Shown here: positions 32,509 through 45,623 of the stretch, in pieces
How positions within the stretch are numbered: the stretch's first letter is position 1
Layout: each line of letters opens with the position of its first letter
NCBI GenBank assembly: GCA_963751275.1
Contig: CAVVTZ010000011.1
Location: 160,001 to 224,000 of the forward strand
DNA: 64,000 nt
Direction of reading: 5' to 3'
Source of the DNA: an uncultured Gemmatimonadaceae bacterium
GTDB taxonomy: Bacteria; Gemmatimonadota; Gemmatimonadetes; Gemmatimonadales; Gemmatimonadaceae
Notes under the pieces: model-generated
Database searches by the model: none
What the model was told of the DNA's origin: nothing
What the model saw: only the letters and a program-made list of their open reading frames with translations
Made by a program: the position numbers and the translations under genes

Positions 32509-33369
32509 TTATGGTAAGAGCCGCTCGGGGTTCGTTTCGAGCGCCGCGCGCTTGACCGATTCGGCCAGCGGCAGGGCGAGGAACTGGTCGACGTTCTTGC
32601 GCATGCTCTCCACGCCGGGACTCGGCCAGTCGGTGCCCCAGAGCAGCTGGCGCTCGAGCTCGGCGATGCGCGGGAAGTACTCGAGCAGGGACTTCGGCGG
32701 AATGCCCGACAGGTCCAGCATCATGCGTTTGTGGCGGCGCAGGACGAAGAAGGCCTCTTCCATGTAAAGCGGCCGCCCGCCGTGCGCCATGATCAGCGGC
32801 AGATCGGGGAAATCGATGGCGACGTCATCCAACTCCATCGGGTTGCCGAACTTGCTGCGCGCACCGGGGAAGATGCTCGTGCCGGTGTGGACGAGCACCG
32901 GCAGGCCGCGCGCCTCGCATGTGCGATAGATGGCGGCGAGCGAATCGAGCCCGCGCGTGTAATCGTTGGCCGCGAAATTCTGGTGCGGGGGGTGCAGCTT
33001 GAGCACGCGCGTGCCAAGGCCGATCAAGCGCTCGACCTTCGCCGCCGCCGTTTTCGGGTCGGGCGTGGTCATCGGATCCACGCCGCCGTACGGCAGCAGC
33101 CGCTTCGGATCGGCGGCGGCGTACTGCGCCGCGAAGTCGTTGGTGCTGTCATCGAAGCCCATGATGTTCGGGCTCGGATAGTTCACCATCCCGACACGCT
33201 GGATCCCCTGTTCGTCCATGACGCGCAGCAGCAGCTTCGGATCATCCATCAGCGCGATCAGGAAGTCGAAGTGCTGCTCCTTCCCACGCCGCATGACTTC
33301 CATGACAGCAGGCTTCAGCTGACGGAAAGGTTGCACGTGGATGTGAAAATCCGTGATGCGATACGTCAT
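32509..33369 (-). CDS. amidohydrolase_2 family protein
   Basis: DFHIH, KLHP, LVHTG, MAHGG, LWGTDWP. Confidence 0.88.
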   Translation of the reverse strand: MTYRITDFHIHVQPFRQLKPAVMEVMRRGKEQHFDFLIALMDDPKLLLRVMDEQGIQRVGMVNYPSPNIMGFDDSTNDFAAQYAAADPKRLLPYGGVDPMTTPDPKTAAAKVERLIGLGTRVLKLHPPHQNFAANDYTRGLDSLAAIYRTCEARGLPVLVHTGTSIFPGARSKFGNPMELDDVAIDFPDLPLIMAHGGRPLYMEEAFFVLRRHKRMMLDLSGIPPKSLLEYFPRIAELERQLLWGTDWPSPGVESMRKNVDQFLALPLAESVKRAALETNPERLLP

Positions 33370-33380
33370 GAAACGCACGG

Positions 33381-33559: not shown

Positions 33560-34339
33560 TCATCGCCCCTTGAAGTCGGCCGGCCGTTTTTCAAGGAATG
33601 CCCGCACTCCTTCGATCTTGTCCTCGCTCGAGAAGCACAGAGCGAACAGCGCCCGTTCGGCGCGCAGTCCATCCTCCAGCGGCAGACTCAACGCCGCGCG
33701 CGTCGCTTCCTTCGCGGCGGCCACGGCCACCGGGCTCTTGGACGCGATCGTCTCCGCGATCGCCATCGCGCGCGTCATGAGCTCCGCCGGCTCGGTGACT
33801 TCCGACACGATGCCGAGCCGCAGCGCCTCCGCGGCGTCGATCATGTCTCCCGTCAGGATGAGCCGCAGGGCGGCGCCCAGCCCCGCCACGCGCGGCAGCC
33901 GCTGCGTGCCGCCGCCGCCGGGGATGATCCCGAGATTCACCTCGGGCTGGCCGAACTTCGCGGCGCTGCTCGCGATCCGGATGTCGCACGCCAGCGCGAT
34001 CTCCATGCCGCCGCCCAGGCAGAATCCGTTCAGCGCGGCGATCACCGGCTTCGGGCAGCGCTCCGGCGCATCGAACACCGGGCCGGTGCTCATCGAGCGC
34101 CATTGGTCCACCGGCGTGCGCCCCTCGAACTCGCCAATGTCCGCGCCCGCGATGAAGGCCTTGTCGCCGGCGCCGGTGAGCAGCACCACCCGCACGCCCG
34201 CATCGGCCCGGGCACGCTCGAAGGCGGCAAGAATGCCGGCGCGCACCTCCTGGTTCAGCGCGTTGCGCTTCTCCGGCCGGTTCACGGTGACCACGGCCAC
34301 CCGGCCGCGCACCTCGTACAGCACCACGCTGTCGCTCAT
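33560..34339 (-). CDS. enoyl-CoA hydratase (crotonase, PaaF-like)
   Basis: NRPEKRNALN, AFIAGADI, CLGGGMEIALACD, FGQPEVNLGIIPGGGGTQRL (both catalytic Glu present). Confidence 0.92.
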   Translation of the reverse strand: MSDSVVLYEVRGRVAVVTVNRPEKRNALNQEVRAGILAAFERARADAGVRVVLLTGAGDKAFIAGADIGEFEGRTPVDQWRSMSTGPVFDAPERCPKPVIAALNGFCLGGGMEIALACDIRIASSAAKFGQPEVNLGIIPGGGGTQRLPRVAGLGAALRLILTGDMIDAAEALRLGIVSEVTEPAELMTRAMAIAETIASKSPVAVAAAKEATRAALSLPLEDGLRAERALFALCFSSEDKIEGVRAFLEKRPADFKGR

Positions 34340-35202
34340 CGTGCGTTCTCCCACCGGTAGAAGCCCTGTCCCGATTTCTTGCCCAAGTGTCCCTCGCGAA
34401 CCTTCTGGCGGAGCAGTTCGGGCGCCGCGTACGTCGCGCCGCCGAGTGTGGCGTGCAGGTGATCGGCGATCGCGAGCCGCACGTCGAGTCCCACGAGATC
34501 CGTGAGACGGAGCGGCCCCAGCGGATGGTTGTAGCCCAGCTCCATCGCGCGGTCGATGTCCTCCGCGCTCGCCACGCCCTGCTCGAGCATCCGGATCGCC
34601 TCGAGGCCGAGCACGACGCCGAGCCGGCTCGTCGCGAAGCCCGGCGAGTCGCGCACCACGATCGGCGTCTTGCCCAGCAGTGCGGCAAGTGCGCGAGCGG
34701 ATTCGACCACGGCATCGCTCGTCTCCGGCCCGCGTACGATCTCGAGCAGCTGCATCACCGGCACCGGATTGAAGAAATGCAGGCCGAGCAGACGTTCACG
34801 GTGCTTGAGCGCCGCGCCGATCGCCGCGATCGAAAGCGAGCTGGTGTTGCTCGCGAGCATCGCCGTGTCCGACACGAGCGGTTCGATCTGCGCGAACAAC
34901 CCCTGTTTGAGCGCGAGCCGTTCGGGCACGGCCTCGATCACGATGTCGGCGCCGCGCACCGCCTCGGTGACCGACGCGACCGCGGCGAGGCTCGACATGC
35001 CGGTGTCGCGCTGCTCCACGGTCGCCTTGCCGCGCTCGATCGCCTTCGCAAAGGCCGCGTCGATCGCGGCAATGCCGCGCTGCAGCTGGCCGGCGTCGGC
35101 ATCGGTGAGCGACACGAAGCAGCCGGCGCGGGCGCACACATAGGCGATCCCGTGTCCCATCGTGCCGGCGCCGATCACGGCCACGCGCGGCGGGCCGGTC
35201 AT
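34336..35202 (-). CDS. 3-hydroxyacyl-CoA dehydrogenase
   Basis: GAGTMGHGIA, IEAVPE, ASNTSSLS, GLHFFNPVP, DSPGF, HPLGPL..TDLVGLDV. Confidence 0.93.
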   Translation of the reverse strand: MTGPPRVAVIGAGTMGHGIAYVCARAGCFVSLTDADAGQLQRGIAAIDAAFAKAIERGKATVEQRDTGMSSLAAVASVTEAVRGADIVIEAVPERLALKQGLFAQIEPLVSDTAMLASNTSSLSIAAIGAALKHRERLLGLHFFNPVPVMQLLEIVRGPETSDAVVESARALAALLGKTPIVVRDSPGFATSRLGVVLGLEAIRMLEQGVASAEDIDRAMELGYNHPLGPLRLTDLVGLDVRLAIADHLHATLGGATYAAPELLRQKVREGHLGKKSGQGFYRWENAR

Positions 35203-35913
35203 CCGCCCAGCGCTTCGCGCAGATCCAGGAGGGTGTCGGTGCAGAGCGCGTCCACGCCGAGCGCCGCGAGCGATTGCGCCCGTTCCGGCTTGTTCACCGT
35301 CCACGCGAGCACGCGGCCGCCGGCGCCGTGCACCGCGCCCACGAGCGCCGCGTCGATCAGGTCCTCCCGCGGCCACACGTCGCGCGCATCGGCGTGCCGC
35401 ATCGCGGCCACGACGTCGCCGGGCGCCGTGTCGAACAGGATGCCGCCGCGCACGCTCGGCGCCACCGACCGGCAGCGGCGGATCGCCTCGTGATCGAAGC
35501 TGTGCACCGCGCAGCGGGCCGGGGCGGGGGAGTCGTGGATCACGTCCAGCACCGGCCCTTCGATGCCGGCCGCCTTCAGCTCGACGAAGACATCGAGCCG
35601 GCCGCGGAGCGCGGCGAGCACTTCGGCCAAGGTAGGGATGAGCGCTTTCCCGTCCACGGAGAAGCCCTGCAGCTCATCGAACGTCAGCGCATCGATGCGC
35701 TTGCCCGCGAGCGCCTTGCTGGGCGCCTTCGCCTTGGGGATGTCGTCGTGATGCACGACCACCACGCCGTTCTTCGTGCAGTGCACATCGAGCTCGAATG
35801 CCGTCGGCGCCGAGTTCGAGGGCGCGCAGGAACGCCGGCAGGGTATTCTCCGGCCGCTCGCGGGAGATCCCGCGATGCGCGATCAGTCGGGGGCGCTCGA
35901 AGCTAGTCGTCAC
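35199..35913 (-). CDS. glycerophosphodiester phosphodiesterase family protein (frameshift near 35797)
   Basis: IAHRGISRERPENTLPAF, ELDVH, VVHHD, VELK, AWTVN, CTD. Confidence 0.88.
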
Positions 35914-37025
35914 TCTTCTTGGGCTGGATCCAGTCGTTCTCCTTGAAGATGTTGCGCAGGAGTTCGCGGTCTTCGCTAGTGGGGAGCACCGAGGCAACGT
36001 AGGCCTCGTACTTCGACGCCTCGATCGGCTCGCCGTGTACGTCGAAGTGCATCTTCTTGTACTCGCCGATGCGCCGGTTGAACTTCACGCTCGGGATCAT
36101 GAGCTTCTGCTGATCCTCGCCCACGTAGGTGTTCAGCCGGTCGATCAGCCCCTGGACCTCCTGGCGGTACAGCTCGCGCGACGCCTCGTTGAGCCGCGCC
36201 GCGTCGCGCCGGCTGCGGATTCGTCCGCTCGTCGAAGCGGCCCTTGAGCCCCCACTCGTACGCCCACTGCGCCGAGCTCGAGCGGTCGGTGCCGAACAGA
36301 TCGAACGCCGTCGGACACCCACTTGTTGAAGATAGCGCTGCATCACCGGCGTCGGGATCTTGCCGGCCTTCGATGATCCGCAGCAGGCCGTTGTTCCCGG
36401 TGCCCAGGTGGAACGACTCCTCCTTGAGCATGGGCTCCATCGAGCGCGCCAGCGGTGCGAACGCCGAGGTGGACATCATCTTGCAGCTGGAACTTGCCGT
36501 CGCGGTCGATGAACTCGGTGTACGTGAAGAAGTCGAGCCAGTTCTCGACCGCGCTCGTTGAACGAGCCGAGCAGGCGCTCGTGCTCGTCGGCGCGCCGCG
36601 CGAGCAGCTTCTCGCGCCTCGCGCTTCCCCTCGTCGCCGAAGTGCGTCACGAGCAGGTAGGACATCTGCCAGCCGTGGCGCATCTCCTCCGCCATCACCC
36701 GGTAGATGGACATCAGGTCGTAGTCGCACGGCGCGTTCTGCAGCAGCGCGCGCTGCTGCTCGACCGACGCGAATTCCGTGTCGCCCTGGAAGACGATGAG
36801 GTTCTGGAGCGCGTCGCGGATGCGCTGGTCGGGGATGTGCATCACCGTCTTCCACTTCGCGCCGCCGGCGTAGTGCCCGAACTCGATCTCCGGCACGTCG
36901 AGGTCGCCGAACTTCACCTCGAACTTGTAGTCCTTCAGTTCGGAGGCATCGACGCCGATGTCGTTCTGCCAGACCTGGAACAGGTCGATCCAGTCGTCGA
37001 AGTTCGTGATCTTCGTGAGTGCCAT
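35903..37025 (-). CDS. diiron aryl-CoA epoxidase, BoxB-like (PaaA/BoxB family), short form; several frameshifts
   Basis: QGDTEFASVEQQ, EEMRHGW, NWLDFFTYTEFIDRDGKFQL, PLARSMEPMLKEESFHL, DLFG, GLKGRFDE match BoxB motifs as recalled. Confidence 0.8.
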
Positions 37026-37035
37026 GATGGCTCCG

Positions 37036-37829
37036 TCAGGTGGCGGTGGAGAACGTCGGTGCGCGCTTCTCGGTGAACGCGGCGATCCCTTCCGCGCGTC
37101 GCCGCTCTGGAAGCAGCGCGATCTGCGCGTCCAGTTCGTAGTCGAGCATCTCGGGCAGCGTCTTGCGTGAGCGAGTCGTACACGGCGCGCTTCGCCATCG
37201 CGATGGAAAGCGCGGGCTTCGCGGCGAGCGTGCGCGCGAGCGCCGTCGTCTCGGCGGCCAGCGCTTCGGGCGCGCACCACGCGGTTGAACAGCCCGAGCC
37301 GCAGGCACTCGTCGGCGTCGATCACGTCGGCGAGCCAGAAGAGTTCGAGCGCCTTGGCCGGCCCCACGAGGCGGGGCAGGAAGTACGTGCCGCCCCAGTC
37401 GGGGTGCAGGCCGATGCGATTGAACGTCTGGCCGAGTTTGGCATCGCGGCTCGCGATGCGCAGATCGCAGGCGAGGGCGAGGTTCGCGCCGCCGCCCGCG
37501 GCCACGCCGTTGACGGAGGCGATCACGGGCTTGGTGGATTCGCGGATCACCGTGACGACGCGCCGGCCGGCCTCGATCAGCGGCCGTCATCGCCGGCACA
37601 TTCTCGGTCGCGACCAGCTCGCCCATGTAGCCGACGTCGGCGCCGGCGCAGAAGCCGCGTCCCGCGCCCGTGATGACGATGACGCGCACGGCTTTGTCGG
37701 CCTCGAGCTCCTCGAGCGCGTCGCCCAGCTCGCGCCGCATCTCGCCCGCGAAGGCGTTGAGCTTGTCCGGGCGGTTGAGCGTGAGCGTGCCGACGCCGCC
37801 CTCGCGCGCGAGCAGGATGTTCTCGTACT

Positions 37830-37833
<4 letters not shown>
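37036..37833 (-). CDS. enoyl-CoA hydratase/isomerase (PaaG-like); frameshifts
   Basis: [44 protein letters not shown] (single-Asp isomerase type). Confidence 0.85.
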
Positions 37834-39045
<1,212 letters not shown>

Positions 39046-39049
<4 letters not shown>

Positions 39050-40537
39050 GACAGGTCCACCCACACCGACTTGATCTGCGTGTAGCCGTCGATCGCGTAC
39101 ATGCCGAGCTCGCGGCCGAAGCCGCTCTGCTTGTAGCCGCCGAACGGCGACGCCGCGTCGTACATGTTGTACGTGTTCACCCACACGGTGCCGGCCTCGC
39201 ACGGCGCGCGCGATGCGCAGCGCCTTGCTCGATGTCGCGCGTCCAGATCCCCGCGGCGAGCCCGTAGATCGTCTCGTTCGCGAGCGCCACCGCGCCGTCG
39301 AAGCCGCTCGTCGAAGGTCGATCATCGCGAGCACGGGGCCGAAGATCTCCTCCCGCGCGATCGTCATCTTCGGCGTCACGCCGTCGAAGATGGTCGCCTC
39401 CACGAAGTAGCCCTTGCCGTTCACCGGCGTGCGCTCGCCGCCCGCGAGCGAGCTGTCGCGCCCTCGTCGCTGCCCCTTCTCGATGTAGCCGAGCACGCTC
39501 TCCATGCTGCGTCTTGGAGACGATCGCGCCGAGCCGCGTCTTGGGATCGATCGGATCGCCCGGCGACCATCTTCTTCGCGCGCTCGAGCGATCTTGGCCA
39601 TCAGCTCGTCGTGGATCGTGTCCTCCACGAGCAGCCGCGAGCCCGCCGCGCAGACCTCGCCCTTGCCGTAGAAGATCGCCGTTGAGCGCGCCGCGCGCCG
39701 CGGCATCGAGGTCCGCGTCGGCGAACACGATGTTCGGCGACTTGCCGCCGAGCTCGAGCGACAGCTTCTTCACCGTTGCCGCGGCCTCGCGCATGATCCA
39801 TCTTGCCCGATCTCGGTGCTCGCCGGTGAAGGCGATCTTGTCCACCTCCGGGTGCCGCACGAGCGCCATGCCCGGCTGTCTTCGCCCTGGCCGGGCACGA
39901 CGTTGAACGCGCCCGGCGGGGAGCCCCGCCTCCAGCGCCAGCTCCGCCATGCGGATCGCCGTGAACGGCGTCTGCGTCGCCGGCTTCAGCACCACGGTGT
40001 TCCCGCACGCGAGCGCCGGCGCGATCTTCCACGCCGCGAGCGACAGCGGGAAGTTCCACGGCGTGATCGCGCCGATCACGCCGAGCGGCTCGCGCAGCGT
40101 GTAGTTGAAGTAGTTCCCGTCCACCGGGATCGTCTCGCCCGTGGATCTTGTCCGCCCAGCCGCCATAGTACTTGAACGTCTCGGCGGTGAGCTTCACGTC
40201 GATGTGCGACTCGAAGAGCGGCTTGCCGTTGTTCTGCGTCTCGAGGCGCGCGAGTTCATCGGCGTGCGCCGTGATCAGCTCGCCCAGCTTGTACACCATC
40301 GCGCCCGCGCTGCCGCGCGCTGATCTTGCGCCACGCCTCGCTCTCGAACGTCGCGCGCGCGTTGGACACCGCGCGCTCCACGTCCGACGCGTCGGCCTCC
40401 GCCACCTTGGCGATGATCTCCTCGGTGGCCGGATTCTCCACGTCGAACGTGCGGCCGCCGGCGGCGTCCACCCGCTCGCCGCCGATCACCAGCTGCGTCG
40501 GGTACCGCTCCGCCGCGGCGGTCACCGTCGCGCTCAC
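39046..40537 (-). CDS. aldehyde dehydrogenase (BoxD-like by context); many frameshifts
   Basis: [48 protein letters not shown]. Confidence 0.9.
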
Positions 40538-41353
40538 TTCCCCTTGAAGTTCGGCTGCCGCTTCTCGACGTACGCGGCCGATCCCTTCCTTCGCATCGCC
40601 GCTCTGGAAGAGCAGCTCTGCAGCTCGCGCTCGATGGCGAGTGCCGTACTCGAGCGGCACTTCGCCGCCGCTCTGCACCGCGCGCTTGATGTGGCCGACC
40701 GCCATCGCCGCCTTGTCCGGCGGCGTGAACTGCTTCGCGTACAGCATCACGCTGCTCCCAGAACTCGTCCGTTGCGGTCGCACACCTCGTTCACGAGCCC
40801 GATCGTCCTGCGCTTCCTCGAAGCTGAACGTGCGGCCGGTGACCATGAGCTCGATCGCCTTCGACTTGCCCACGATGCGCGAGCAGCCGCTGCGTGCCGC
40901 CGGTGCCGGGGAGCACGCCGAGGTTCACCTCGGGGAGTCCGATCTTGCCCGCGTCCTGGCGCGCGAGGCGGATGTCCGCGGCCATGGCGATCTCGAGTCC
41001 GCCGCCCACGCAGTGGCCGTTCAGCGCCGCGATCACGAGCTTCGGCGTCTGCTCCAGCCGGCTCAGCGTCTCGTTCGCGTGCAGGCAGAAGTAGTACTTG
41101 AACACCGGGTCCACGGTGTTCAGCATGTTGATGTTCGCGCCGGCCGAGAAGAACTTCTCGCCCGCGCCGCGCAGGATGATCACGTGCACGTCGTTGTCGA
41201 AGCGCGCCTTGAGGATGCCTCGTCGAGCTGGCGCATCATCTCGTGCGTGTAGGTGTTCGCCGGCGGATCGTTCAGCTCGAACACCGCGATATTGCCTTCC
41301 TTCCGGTAGGTCACCAGCGTCGCGGCGGCTTTCTCATTCATCGTGGCGGTCAT
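40534..41353 (-). CDS. crotonase resembling the N-terminal domain of BoxC; frameshifts
   Basis: PANTY, ARFDNDV, FFSAGANINML, FKYYFCLHANETL, CVGGGLEIAMAAD, LPEVNLGVLPGTGGTQRL. Confidence 0.8.
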
Positions 41354-41403
41354 AGGTGTTCCTGGTAAAGAGTTGGACGGTAGTCGTTAGCCGTTGCTTC
41401 CGA

Positions 41404-41491
41404 CATCATGTTCATCATGTCAATCCTGTCAAAGCAGTTTCTCGTAGCGAGTGGGAAGAGCATCTGACAGGATGAACATGATTGACATGAT
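41404..41491. repeat. 9-bp-periodic palindromic element, copy B (arms in swapped order)
   Basis: CATCATGTTCATCATGTCAATCCTGTCAAAGCAG ... GCATCTGACAGGATGAACATGATTGACATGAT. Confidence 0.85.
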
Positions 41492-41499
41492 TGAGCCAC

Positions 41500-42123
41500 T
41501 CAGCCGGCGGATGTGCGCGGAAGCGACGCGATCGCGACCGGGAGCCCCACATAGCCGCCGAGGAAGATCCGGCCCACGTTCTGCGCGAGCAGCTCCACGC
41601 CGAGATCGCCGTTCGGGTCGTACCAGTTGTAGATCCAGTTCATCATGCCGAACAGCGAGTACGCGGCCACGCGCCGGTTGGCGTGCGCGGGGCCATGTGT
41701 TTCCTCGATGCCCGCGAGAATGTCCATCAGAGCGCGGGTGTACTCGCTCTTCATTTCGTTCACGGTATGCAGGGGGGCTCCGGTGAGGGCGCCGGCCTCG
41801 TGCGACAACACCTTCATCTCCGCCATGTGGGTGGCGAAGTAATCCAGGTGGTTGTCGATGAATTTCATGAGGCGGTCCACCGGATCGGTGGTCCCGGCGA
41901 GGCTCTCGCGCATTCCGGCGATCACCCGCTCGAAATTGCGCTGCTGGATCAGGAAGAGCAGCTCCTCCTTGCTCTCCACATAATAGTAGAGGCCCGCCAG
42001 TGACACTCCCGACGCCCGCGCCAGGTCGCGCATGCTCGTCTGATGGTAGCCGCGCTCCGCGAAGACCCGCGCGGCCGCGGAAAGCAGGGCATCCAGCTTC
42101 TGGTCCTTGGTCGCGATCGCCAA
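41500..42123 (-). CDS. TetR/AcrR family regulator (PaaR/KstR2-like)
   Basis: AARVFAERGYHQTSMRDLARASGVSLAGLYYY..SKEELL; FGMMNWIYNWYDP; TTG start with GGAGG upstream. Confidence 0.9.
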   Translation of the reverse strand: MAIATKDQKLDALLSAAARVFAERGYHQTSMRDLARASGVSLAGLYYYVESKEELLFLIQQRNFERVIAGMRESLAGTTDPVDRLMKFIDNHLDYFATHMAEMKVLSHEAGALTGAPLHTVNEMKSEYTRALMDILAGIEETHGPAHANRRVAAYSLFGMMNWIYNWYDPNGDLGVELLAQNVGRIFLGGYVGLPVAIASLPRTSAG

Positions 42124-42141
42124 TAGGCCTCCCCCGGGCTT

Positions 42142-42189
42142 CGAACGAACGTTCGGACTCAACCTACGGGGCGGGGGAATGACCGTCAA
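42142..42189 (-). promoter_or_regulatory. sigma70 promoter of the TetR gene with an adjacent palindromic operator
   Basis: Minus strand: TTGACG (42189-42184), 17 bp, TAGGTT (42166-42161); CGAACGAACGTTCG at 42142-42155. Confidence 0.7.
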
Positions 42190-45290: not shown

Positions 45291-45417
45291 GCTTTGACAG
45301 GATGAACATGATGGACGGGATGACTGCACTTGAACATGTCGCTCACTTCGCCTCGCGCGAATCAGCGACATGTTCAAGCGCAGTCATCCTGTCCATCATG
45401 TTCATCCTGTCAAATGC
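45291..45417. repeat. 9-bp-periodic palindromic element, copy D
   Basis: GCTTTGACAGGATGAACATGATGGACGGGATGAC, inner hairpin, GTCATCCTGTCCATCATGTTCATCCTGTCAAATGC. Confidence 0.9.
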
Positions 45418-45481
45418 AGTTCCCTACTCACCATCCACGCCCGTTGAGCTACGTCGCCACGCGTCGTAGATTGCCCACCAC

Positions 45482-45565
45482 GCCCGGGTGGTGGAACTGG
45501 TAGACGCAGGGGACTCAAAATCCCCCGAGCTTCGGCTCTTGCGGGTTCGACTCCCGCCCCGGGCA
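45482..45565 (+). tRNA. tRNA-Leu(CAA), CCA not encoded
   Basis: Acceptor GCCCGGG/CCCGGGC+A, D-loop GGAACTGGTAGAC, anticodon arm GGGGA-CTCAAAA-TCCCC, long variable arm, T-loop GTTCGACTC. Confidence 0.96.
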
Positions 45566-45623
45566 CTCTGTTCGACGCAGGTCTCACATCCTGTCCGGAG
45601 CGTGACCCGGTGGCCCACCGATC

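Follow-up and report, generated by a model that had tools for sequence, protein, structure and literature searches.

A short BoxB-type operon widespread in Gemmatimonadota and its predicted role in coenzyme A-dependent aromatic ring cleavage

A minus-strand run of nine genes lies within a 64,000-nucleotide stretch of the genome of an uncultured Gemmatimonadaceae bacterium (GCA_963751275.1, contig CAVVTZ010000011.1, positions 160,001 to 224,000; 'the window'). The run encodes a short BoxB-like di-iron oxygenase and relatives of enzymes from both the Box pathway for benzoyl-coenzyme A (CoA) and the Paa pathway for phenylacetyl-CoA, and it raises the question of which ring it opens and by which chemistry. 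This operon is a real, widespread and uncharacterised variant of the Box kind that stands outside the canonical Box and Paa systems. From sequence comparison, we put at roughly 0.6 the probability that it epoxidises benzoyl-CoA supplied by an Hcr-like dehydroxylation and then cleaves the ring, probably in the service of tyrosine and phenylalanine catabolism. A search of the open-access literature returned no account of this arrangement.

In the proposed route, 4-hydroxybenzoyl-CoA would be dehydroxylated to benzoyl-CoA by an Hcr-like enzyme encoded away from the operon. The short single-subunit BoxB relative would convert benzoyl-CoA to the 2,3-epoxide, with electrons that may come from a housekeeping ferredoxin instead of BoxA. 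A single-domain BoxC-like crotonase (crotonase 1) is predicted to open the ring with loss of formate, and the aldehyde dehydrogenase (ALDH), isomerase, hydratase, dehydrogenase and thiolase would then yield succinyl-CoA and acetyl-CoA. Genes were called from open reading frame translations and Pfam/NCBIfam profile searches, and the locus is composed as follows.

42142–42155, no strand assigned: palindromic TetR operator CGAACGNNCGTTCG, in agreement with the Thermus PaaR consensus
41500–42123, minus strand: TetR repressor, 207 amino acids, likely aryl-CoA responsive (Pfam/NCBIfam; 36–39% identical to the TetRs of canonical boxCB and benzoyl-CoA-reductase-like (bcr-like) clusters)
40534–41353, minus strand: crotonase 1, single-domain and BoxC-N-like, predicted epoxide ring-cleaving dihydrolase, frameshifted (motif, both glutamates)
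39046–40537, minus strand: ALDH, predicted BoxD role, frameshifted (profile searches)
37830–39049, minus strand: thiolase, frameshifted (best model 3-oxoadipyl-CoA thiolase, 560 versus a cut-off of 605 in an intact relative)
37036–37833, minus strand: crotonase 2, PaaG-related, predicted delta3-delta2 isomerase, frameshifted (225 versus a PaaG cut-off of 345)
35903–37025, minus strand: short BoxB-like di-iron oxygenase, predicted epoxidase, 371 amino acids in relatives, frameshifted (profile, structural relatives, alignment, model, tree)
35199–35913, minus strand: GDPD-family protein, probably a lineage-specific passenger (Pfam/NCBIfam, locus survey)
34336–35202, minus strand: 3-hydroxyacyl-CoA dehydrogenase, intact (Pfam/NCBIfam)
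33560–34339, minus strand: crotonase 3, enoyl-CoA hydratase, PaaF-like, intact (252 versus a PaaF cut-off of 371)
32509–33378, minus strand: Amidohydro_2 protein, downstream (Pfam/NCBIfam, locus survey)

Intact orthologues of the oxygenase span about 371 residues, compared with 475–480 in canonical BoxB. The only profile they match is TIGR03225, on which intact relatives reach 250 and 230 bits, below its curated cut-off of 499. The best solved relative is BoxB (3PER, E-value 1.7e-58, versus about 5e-4 for PaaA), and sequence identity is 38–39% to BoxB and 16–17% to PaaA. We aligned 27 short types and seven PaaA sequences at the ligand and benzoyl-pocket residues of BoxB named in a passage of PMC5489048. 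All six iron ligands (E120, E150, H153, D211, E240, H243) are kept in every short type, as are five of the seven named pocket residues (Q116, T119, S123, F193, F203); all seven PaaA sequences have H, S and G at positions 116, 119 and 123. In a careful tree of 23 sequences (a quick tree held 62 rows), short types and canonical BoxB form one clade (99/99) with PaaA outside and a 255-residue Sulfolobales protein as sister. Canonical BoxB is a separate 100/100 clade on a long branch, and the short types fall outside it as sister or paraphyletic group, their monophyly being neither shown nor rejected (p-AU 0.3). An AlphaFold model of the short oxygenase is confident, with a pLDDT of 86.5. The short BoxB-type oxygenase of the initial annotation is upheld. 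In some Deltaproteobacteria-type loci a NuoE/NuoF-like pair, a candidate alternative reductase, directly follows the short BoxB gene (L080:6552–8053, L095:4395–5912). In archaeal loci this position is taken by Pfam-less proteins of 178–197 residues (L087:7568–8161, L138:9942–10478, L091:7558–8151), with MoaE/MoaC genes nearby.

Crotonase 1 is a single domain of 269 residues, as opposed to the two-domain BoxC, and shares with the BoxC N-domain both glutamates and the motif K-xx-F-C-xxx-N-E-T, whose cysteine probably plays a role. The catalytic part of BoxC is its N-domain only, according to a passage of PMC4498308. The best structural match of crotonase 1 is 2PPY, and a search of the PDB with full-length BoxC at 1e-15 returned only BoxC itself (2W3P) and 2PPY, a member of the crotonase-1 family. 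A FastTree analysis including 111 motif copies, subject to long-branch caveats, assigns crotonase 1 to the side of BoxC and separates it from the PaaG-, PaaF- and Dch-like crotonases (97), in keeping with the half-size BoxC-like enzyme originally described. None of the isomerase, hydratase, dehydrogenase and thiolase scores over the PaaG, PaaF, PaaH or PaaJ cut-offs. Both the Box and the Paa route need these four activities after 3,4-dehydroadipyl-CoA, and the earlier designation 'Box/Paa hybrid' is therefore mostly a matter of labelling: the lower enzymes are indeed Paa-related, but the term is an overstatement.

Compared with the Box pathway (BoxABCD) of Azoarcus/Aromatoleum evansii (BoxB 3PER/3PM5, BoxC 2W3P), the operon has in common a monomeric di-iron site, most benzoyl-pocket residues, the BoxC N-domain signature, an ALDH and beta-oxidation-type lower steps. 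It differs in its shorter oxygenase and one-domain crotonase, in the absence of BoxA and of a ligase from the cluster, in an ALDH that is nearer StyD/BADH models, and in the associated Hcr-like enzyme. With the Paa pathway (PaaABCDE, G, Z, J, F, H, K; PaaR) it shares the operator consensus and PaaG/F/H/J-related lower enzymes, but it contains no PaaA/B/C/E/K/Z and its oxygenase is far from PaaA. The view that the cluster fits neither textbook pathway stands. The BoxB score lies under its cut-off, and two-domain BoxC, BoxA, PaaA/B/C, PaaK and PaaE were not matched. Tree and genome search likewise did not find the combination that the initial annotation had named as contradicting it, a canonical BoxB/BoxC placement with boxA elsewhere.

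A second, uncharacterised oxygenase occupies the same position in other genomes. In G084 (L062:8069–10400) and G194, a four-subunit PaaADBC-like oxygenase replaces the short BoxB within the same locus, with the same flanks, operator and crotonase 1; further loci are L063 and L245–L256. Its large subunit scores 124 against a PaaA cut-off of 280, and the enzyme forms a separate clade with 17–19% identity to short BoxB; no reductase gene was seen beside it. It recurs, again with crotonase 1 in common, in Longimicrobiales-type genomes, Geobacillus-like loci and Thermus and haloarchaeal plasmids, the FC-NET motif not being present in the Thermus and haloarchaeal crotonase matches. Searching metagenomes for the 2PPY-type motif turned up 34 loci, one of which encodes a crotonase nearly identical to 2PPY, a protein that we take to be of Geobacillus origin. 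Loci with such a crotonase hold a four-subunit oxygenase (51% identical to the G084 form), a benzoate-CoA ligase over its cut-off (618 and 592 bits) and a PaaX-like regulator; strong benzoate-CoA ligase matches occur in 13 of the 34 loci, on 10 contigs. Aerobic benzoate catabolism through the novel pathway is reported for Bacillus stearothermophilus (Zaar 2001, as cited in a passage of PMC6043799), and the four-subunit form may be the missing genetic basis of benzoate use by a benzoyl-CoA route in Geobacillus. Haloarchaeal plasmid loci with a related oxygenase encode an acyl-CoA synthetase (399 and 370 against the benzoate-ligase cut-off of 375) and a 2Fe-2S ferredoxin. In Geobacillus-like benzoate clusters on three metagenome contigs (L209, L211, L212), crotonase 1 occurs twice in nearly identical form, some 5.5–6 kb apart, with a metallo-beta-lactamase-fold (MBL) hydrolase, a thioesterase and an adenine-deaminase-like gene. 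More four-subunit relatives, on Thermus, haloarchaeal and Agrobacterium plasmids (L065–L071), are accompanied by UbiD decarboxylases and CoA-transferases, and one of them also by a formate dehydrogenase; their substrates may differ.

The phylum was profiled in 250 genomes, each at least 90% complete and not including the host genome of the window (G000; 3.1 Mb, 83% complete). The short type is present in 49 genomes, one of which (G012) is marked unpublished and by itself bears no claim; canonical BoxB is present in two and the four-subunit oxygenase in 71. A further 45 genomes gave weak matches only, and all five of these that were tested proved to be true PaaA. The three sets are disjoint, and crotonase 1 occurs in 119 genomes, namely 48 with the short type, 70 with the four-subunit type and one other. 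An HcrA-like gene (E-value ≤ 1e-150) accompanies 114 of 120 carriers (46 of 49 short, 68 of 71 four-subunit), versus 11 of 130 other genomes; on our reading, two of these 11 genes sit in bcr-like clusters. TIGR01015 and PF04209 each matched 1 of 251 genomes and missed the HmgA-like gene of the phylum, so this gene was surveyed with a single protein query. The query is encoded beside HppD (L258:12818–14008), has no NCBIfam match at 1e-30, and is presumed by us to be HmgA-like. The gene was found in 105 genomes, among them 44 of the 45 PaaA-type genomes and none of the carriers; 24 genomes belong to neither group, and one carrier (G175) is an exception in having a TIGR01015 HmgA. HppD was absent from all five carriers examined and from G000. 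Both states, carrier and HmgA-like, occur without overlap within four families (f1, f2, f3, f8). The mutually exclusive distribution of Paa and this system suggests an overlapping role, and because this system stands in for HppD/HmgA and Paa, its physiological source is probably tyrosine and phenylalanine or phenolic acids.

A motif scan of genome contigs gave at least 120 stretches, of which 80 with flanks were examined. Most of their titles name Acidobacteriota; Gemmatimonadota come next, then archaea of the Poseidoniales type and a few other groups. Crotonase 1 is present in 60 of the 80 loci and Hcr-like genes in 14, and no BoxA, PaaK or benzoate-ligase match was found in them apart from a weak one in an Acidianus locus.

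In G000 the Hcr-like genes are unlinked to the operon (C9:362169–366071). The Hcr-like enzyme shares with HcrCAB the gamma-alpha-beta order, and the nearest structure to its alpha subunit is 1RM6 (587 versus 273 bits). The alpha subunit encoded inside an acidobacterial cluster exceeds the TIGR03194 cut-off (1042 versus 994.55), the 4Fe-4S motif of the beta subunit is present in four carrier loci, and each of four marine archaeal carriers has one HcrA-like gene. In G084 the Hcr genes lie on a different contig from the oxygenase cluster. The Hcr-like enzyme differs from HcrCAB in that it occurs with an oxygenase, not a benzoyl-CoA reductase. This enzyme, the exchangeable oxygenase of four subunits and the mutual exclusion with homogentisate and Paa genes had all escaped the initial annotation, which was otherwise right that the window encodes no BoxA/PaaE reductase, PaaB/C or CoA ligase. 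Searches over the 83%-complete, frameshifted G000 found no boxA, paaE/FNR, paaB/C, PaaA or PaaK either. Among 50 short carriers surveyed for partners (48 of the 49, plus G017 and G032), none has BoxA over the cut-off, nor do the two canonical-boxB Gemmatimonadota; PaaK is over its cut-off in none and near it in two. A 7Fe ferredoxin is present both in G000, together with a KorC/KorAB-like locus, and in one marine archaeal carrier (1.24 of 1.60 Mb seen), together with a 2-oxoacid dehydrogenase.

The TetR operator, CGAACGAACGTTCG at 42142–42155, is one of two matches to CNAACGNNCGTTNG across the 3.1-Mb genome, the Thermus PaaR consensus used for comparison being that given in a passage of PMC9493321. 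Of the 29 TetR genes in this family of clusters, 28 have the operator upstream with at most one mismatch. The PaaR-type operator noted earlier is thus present, yet the same TetR family and operator also occur at the phylum's canonical boxCB and bcr-like clusters and were not seen at five canonical paa loci inspected, which weakens the hybrid label as drawn from the regulator. Since the operator was not found at nine carrier Hcr loci or at that of G000, no shared regulon of operon and Hcr genes is shown. Canonical boxCB lies under a TetR in G208 and G170 (L051, L052), neither of which has BoxA over the cut-off. Two Gemmatimonadales genomes, G007 and G063 (L239, L242), have bcr-like clusters with a fused HcrCA and the same TetR operator.

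Several results weigh against benzoyl-CoA as the substrate, foremost those on supply. No step from an arylpyruvate or phenolic acid to a C7 thioester was found, and no enzyme turned up that would form benzoyl or 4-hydroxybenzoyl thioesters. G000 gave no match to benzoate-CoA ligase, PaaK, GctAB, the HppD family, HGD-D or the HmgA-like gene, and the 1.24-Mb archaeal region lacks HppD, HmgA-like, aryl ligase, GctAB and KorAB genes; comparing the two genomes yielded no missing C8-to-C7 step. The single ammonia lyase of G000 was set aside: on our reading it sits among hut-like genes. A benzoate-ligase-family gene is over the cut-off in 33 of the 50 short carriers (11 at 550 bits or more), leaving 17 without one; 22 of the 33 score 376–518 bits, and two such mid-score genes proved to lie in an anthranilate-type cluster. 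The Hcr-like alpha subunit is over the TIGR03194 cut-off in 0 of 251 phylum-search genomes, with most carriers at about 800–900 bits. The beta 4Fe-4S motif was not seen within one reading frame in G000, and one Hcr-like locus has a PaaK-family ligase adjoining. In the oxygenase pocket F206 is Y in 24 of 27 short types, and T210 (I or V) and P121 (F) are changed in all 27, V at 210 being also the PaaA residue. The exclusion of canonical PaaA (45 of 45) would fit a phenylacetyl substrate equally well. The genomes are kin, so that the counts overstate independence, and no statistical test is claimed.

The unfound C7-thioester step is the main support for an alternative in which phenylacetyl-CoA is the substrate. 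A 2-oxoacid dehydrogenase would form it from phenylpyruvate in one step; crotonase 2 would take the PaaG role, crotonase 1 would hydrolyse the oxepin, and tyrosine would be funnelled in through dehydroxylation of 4-hydroxyphenylacetyl-CoA by the Hcr-like enzyme. We judge this unlikely. It requires neither a ligase nor an alpha-oxidation enzyme, neither of which was found, and it accounts for the exclusion of both PaaA and the HmgA-like gene. The operator fits the phenylacetyl-CoA-responsive PaaR consensus, T210V is shared with PaaA, and a 2-oxoacid dehydrogenase E1 is common to G000 and the marine archaeon. Such E1/E2-like genes are also present, on our reading, in canonical paa loci of the phylum (L258, L260, L261, L262), where they suggest that phenylacetyl-CoA is made straight from phenylpyruvate. 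However, the pocket and the tree are BoxB-like, F206Y would narrow the pocket and not enlarge it, and crotonase 1 is BoxC-like and linked to a benzoate-CoA ligase in the Geobacillus-like loci. The scheme also demands unprecedented Hcr chemistry, as this reaction probably needs a thioester conjugated para to the hydroxyl. BoxB itself is reportedly inactive on phenylacetyl-CoA (a passage of PMC4498308).

Less probable still is a scavenging role, in which phenolic or substituted benzoates from outside the cell (4-hydroxybenzoate, coumarate, anthranilate) would be activated by ligases or CoA-transferases encoded elsewhere in the genome. A substituted benzoyl-CoA might then be what is epoxidised, and the exclusion of HmgA would be a lineage effect. 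The pocket changes at 121, 206 and 210, the GctAB-like CoA-transferase found in 8 of the 80 motif loci and the ligase-family genes of the 33 carriers point this way. Against it, both states occur without overlap in each of four families, the ligase is lacking from 17 carriers, and none was seen in the marine archaeal region.

The benzoyl-CoA route, which we continue to favour, has a broader formulation to which we give rather less than even odds. It would be an undescribed route for tyrosine and phenylalanine in which a molybdenum dehydroxylase of the 'anaerobic' type supplies a CoA epoxidase driven by ferredoxin. The epoxidase would exist in two interchangeable, distantly related forms (one or four subunits). 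About half of Gemmatimonadota would use the route instead of HppD/HmgA and Paa, and soil Acidobacteria and Marine Group II archaea would have it too. The boldest version has the dehydroxylase act on 4-hydroxyphenylacetyl-CoA, which, if true, would be new chemistry. Abundant, uncultured soil Gemmatimonadota, Acidobacteria and marine archaea would then use one unstudied aromatic ring route that joins a reductive and an oxygenolytic step. Automatic annotation routinely calls these genes PaaA or BoxB, and surveys of aromatic degradation therefore misassign them. Two small enzymes and a ferredoxin are directly testable in vitro, and cultured Geobacillus-type strains, the group to which we assign crotonase structure 2PPY, offer a place for testing the four-subunit form.

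The order of the nine genes and their mostly overlapping arrangement are as first described. Six of the eight junctions overlap, five by four bases (GTGA or ATGA) and that between oxygenase and GDPD by 11 nt; crotonase 2 and the oxygenase are 10 nt apart, TetR and crotonase 1 about 146 nt. The TetR start, placed at 42189 before, is most likely TTG 42123. The earlier span of 33560..42189 leaves out the amidohydrolase (33378–32509), a conserved cluster member in Gemmatimonadota and Acidobacteria that may serve as a lactonase; GDPD was seen in Gemmatimonadales-type loci only. Homologues with names, 79–85% identical, come from Gemmatimonadaceae or Gemmatimonadota. Six genes in the window (crotonase 1, ALDH, thiolase, crotonase 2, oxygenase and GDPD) carry frameshifts, most likely from long-read assembly errors: relatives such as G017, G008 and G026 have intact genes in the same order, short-read contigs from 85–95%-alike relatives differ by single-base indels at 12 places (among them 36312, 36553, 37119, 38590 and 41216), and unrelated G000 genes are broken in the same manner. 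A decaying, non-functional cluster, which the six frameshifted genes might suggest, is very improbable on these grounds and was rejected.

Two regions may reflect bin contamination: contig-end genes of G000 (C2:114000–123953, L232) that look actinobacterial, and, in G004, a stretch of canonical boxBC that is degraded (L028). In the window, a tRNA-like stretch at 45402–45573, recognised by eye from open reading frame translations only, lies just upstream of a serine/threonine kinase gene.

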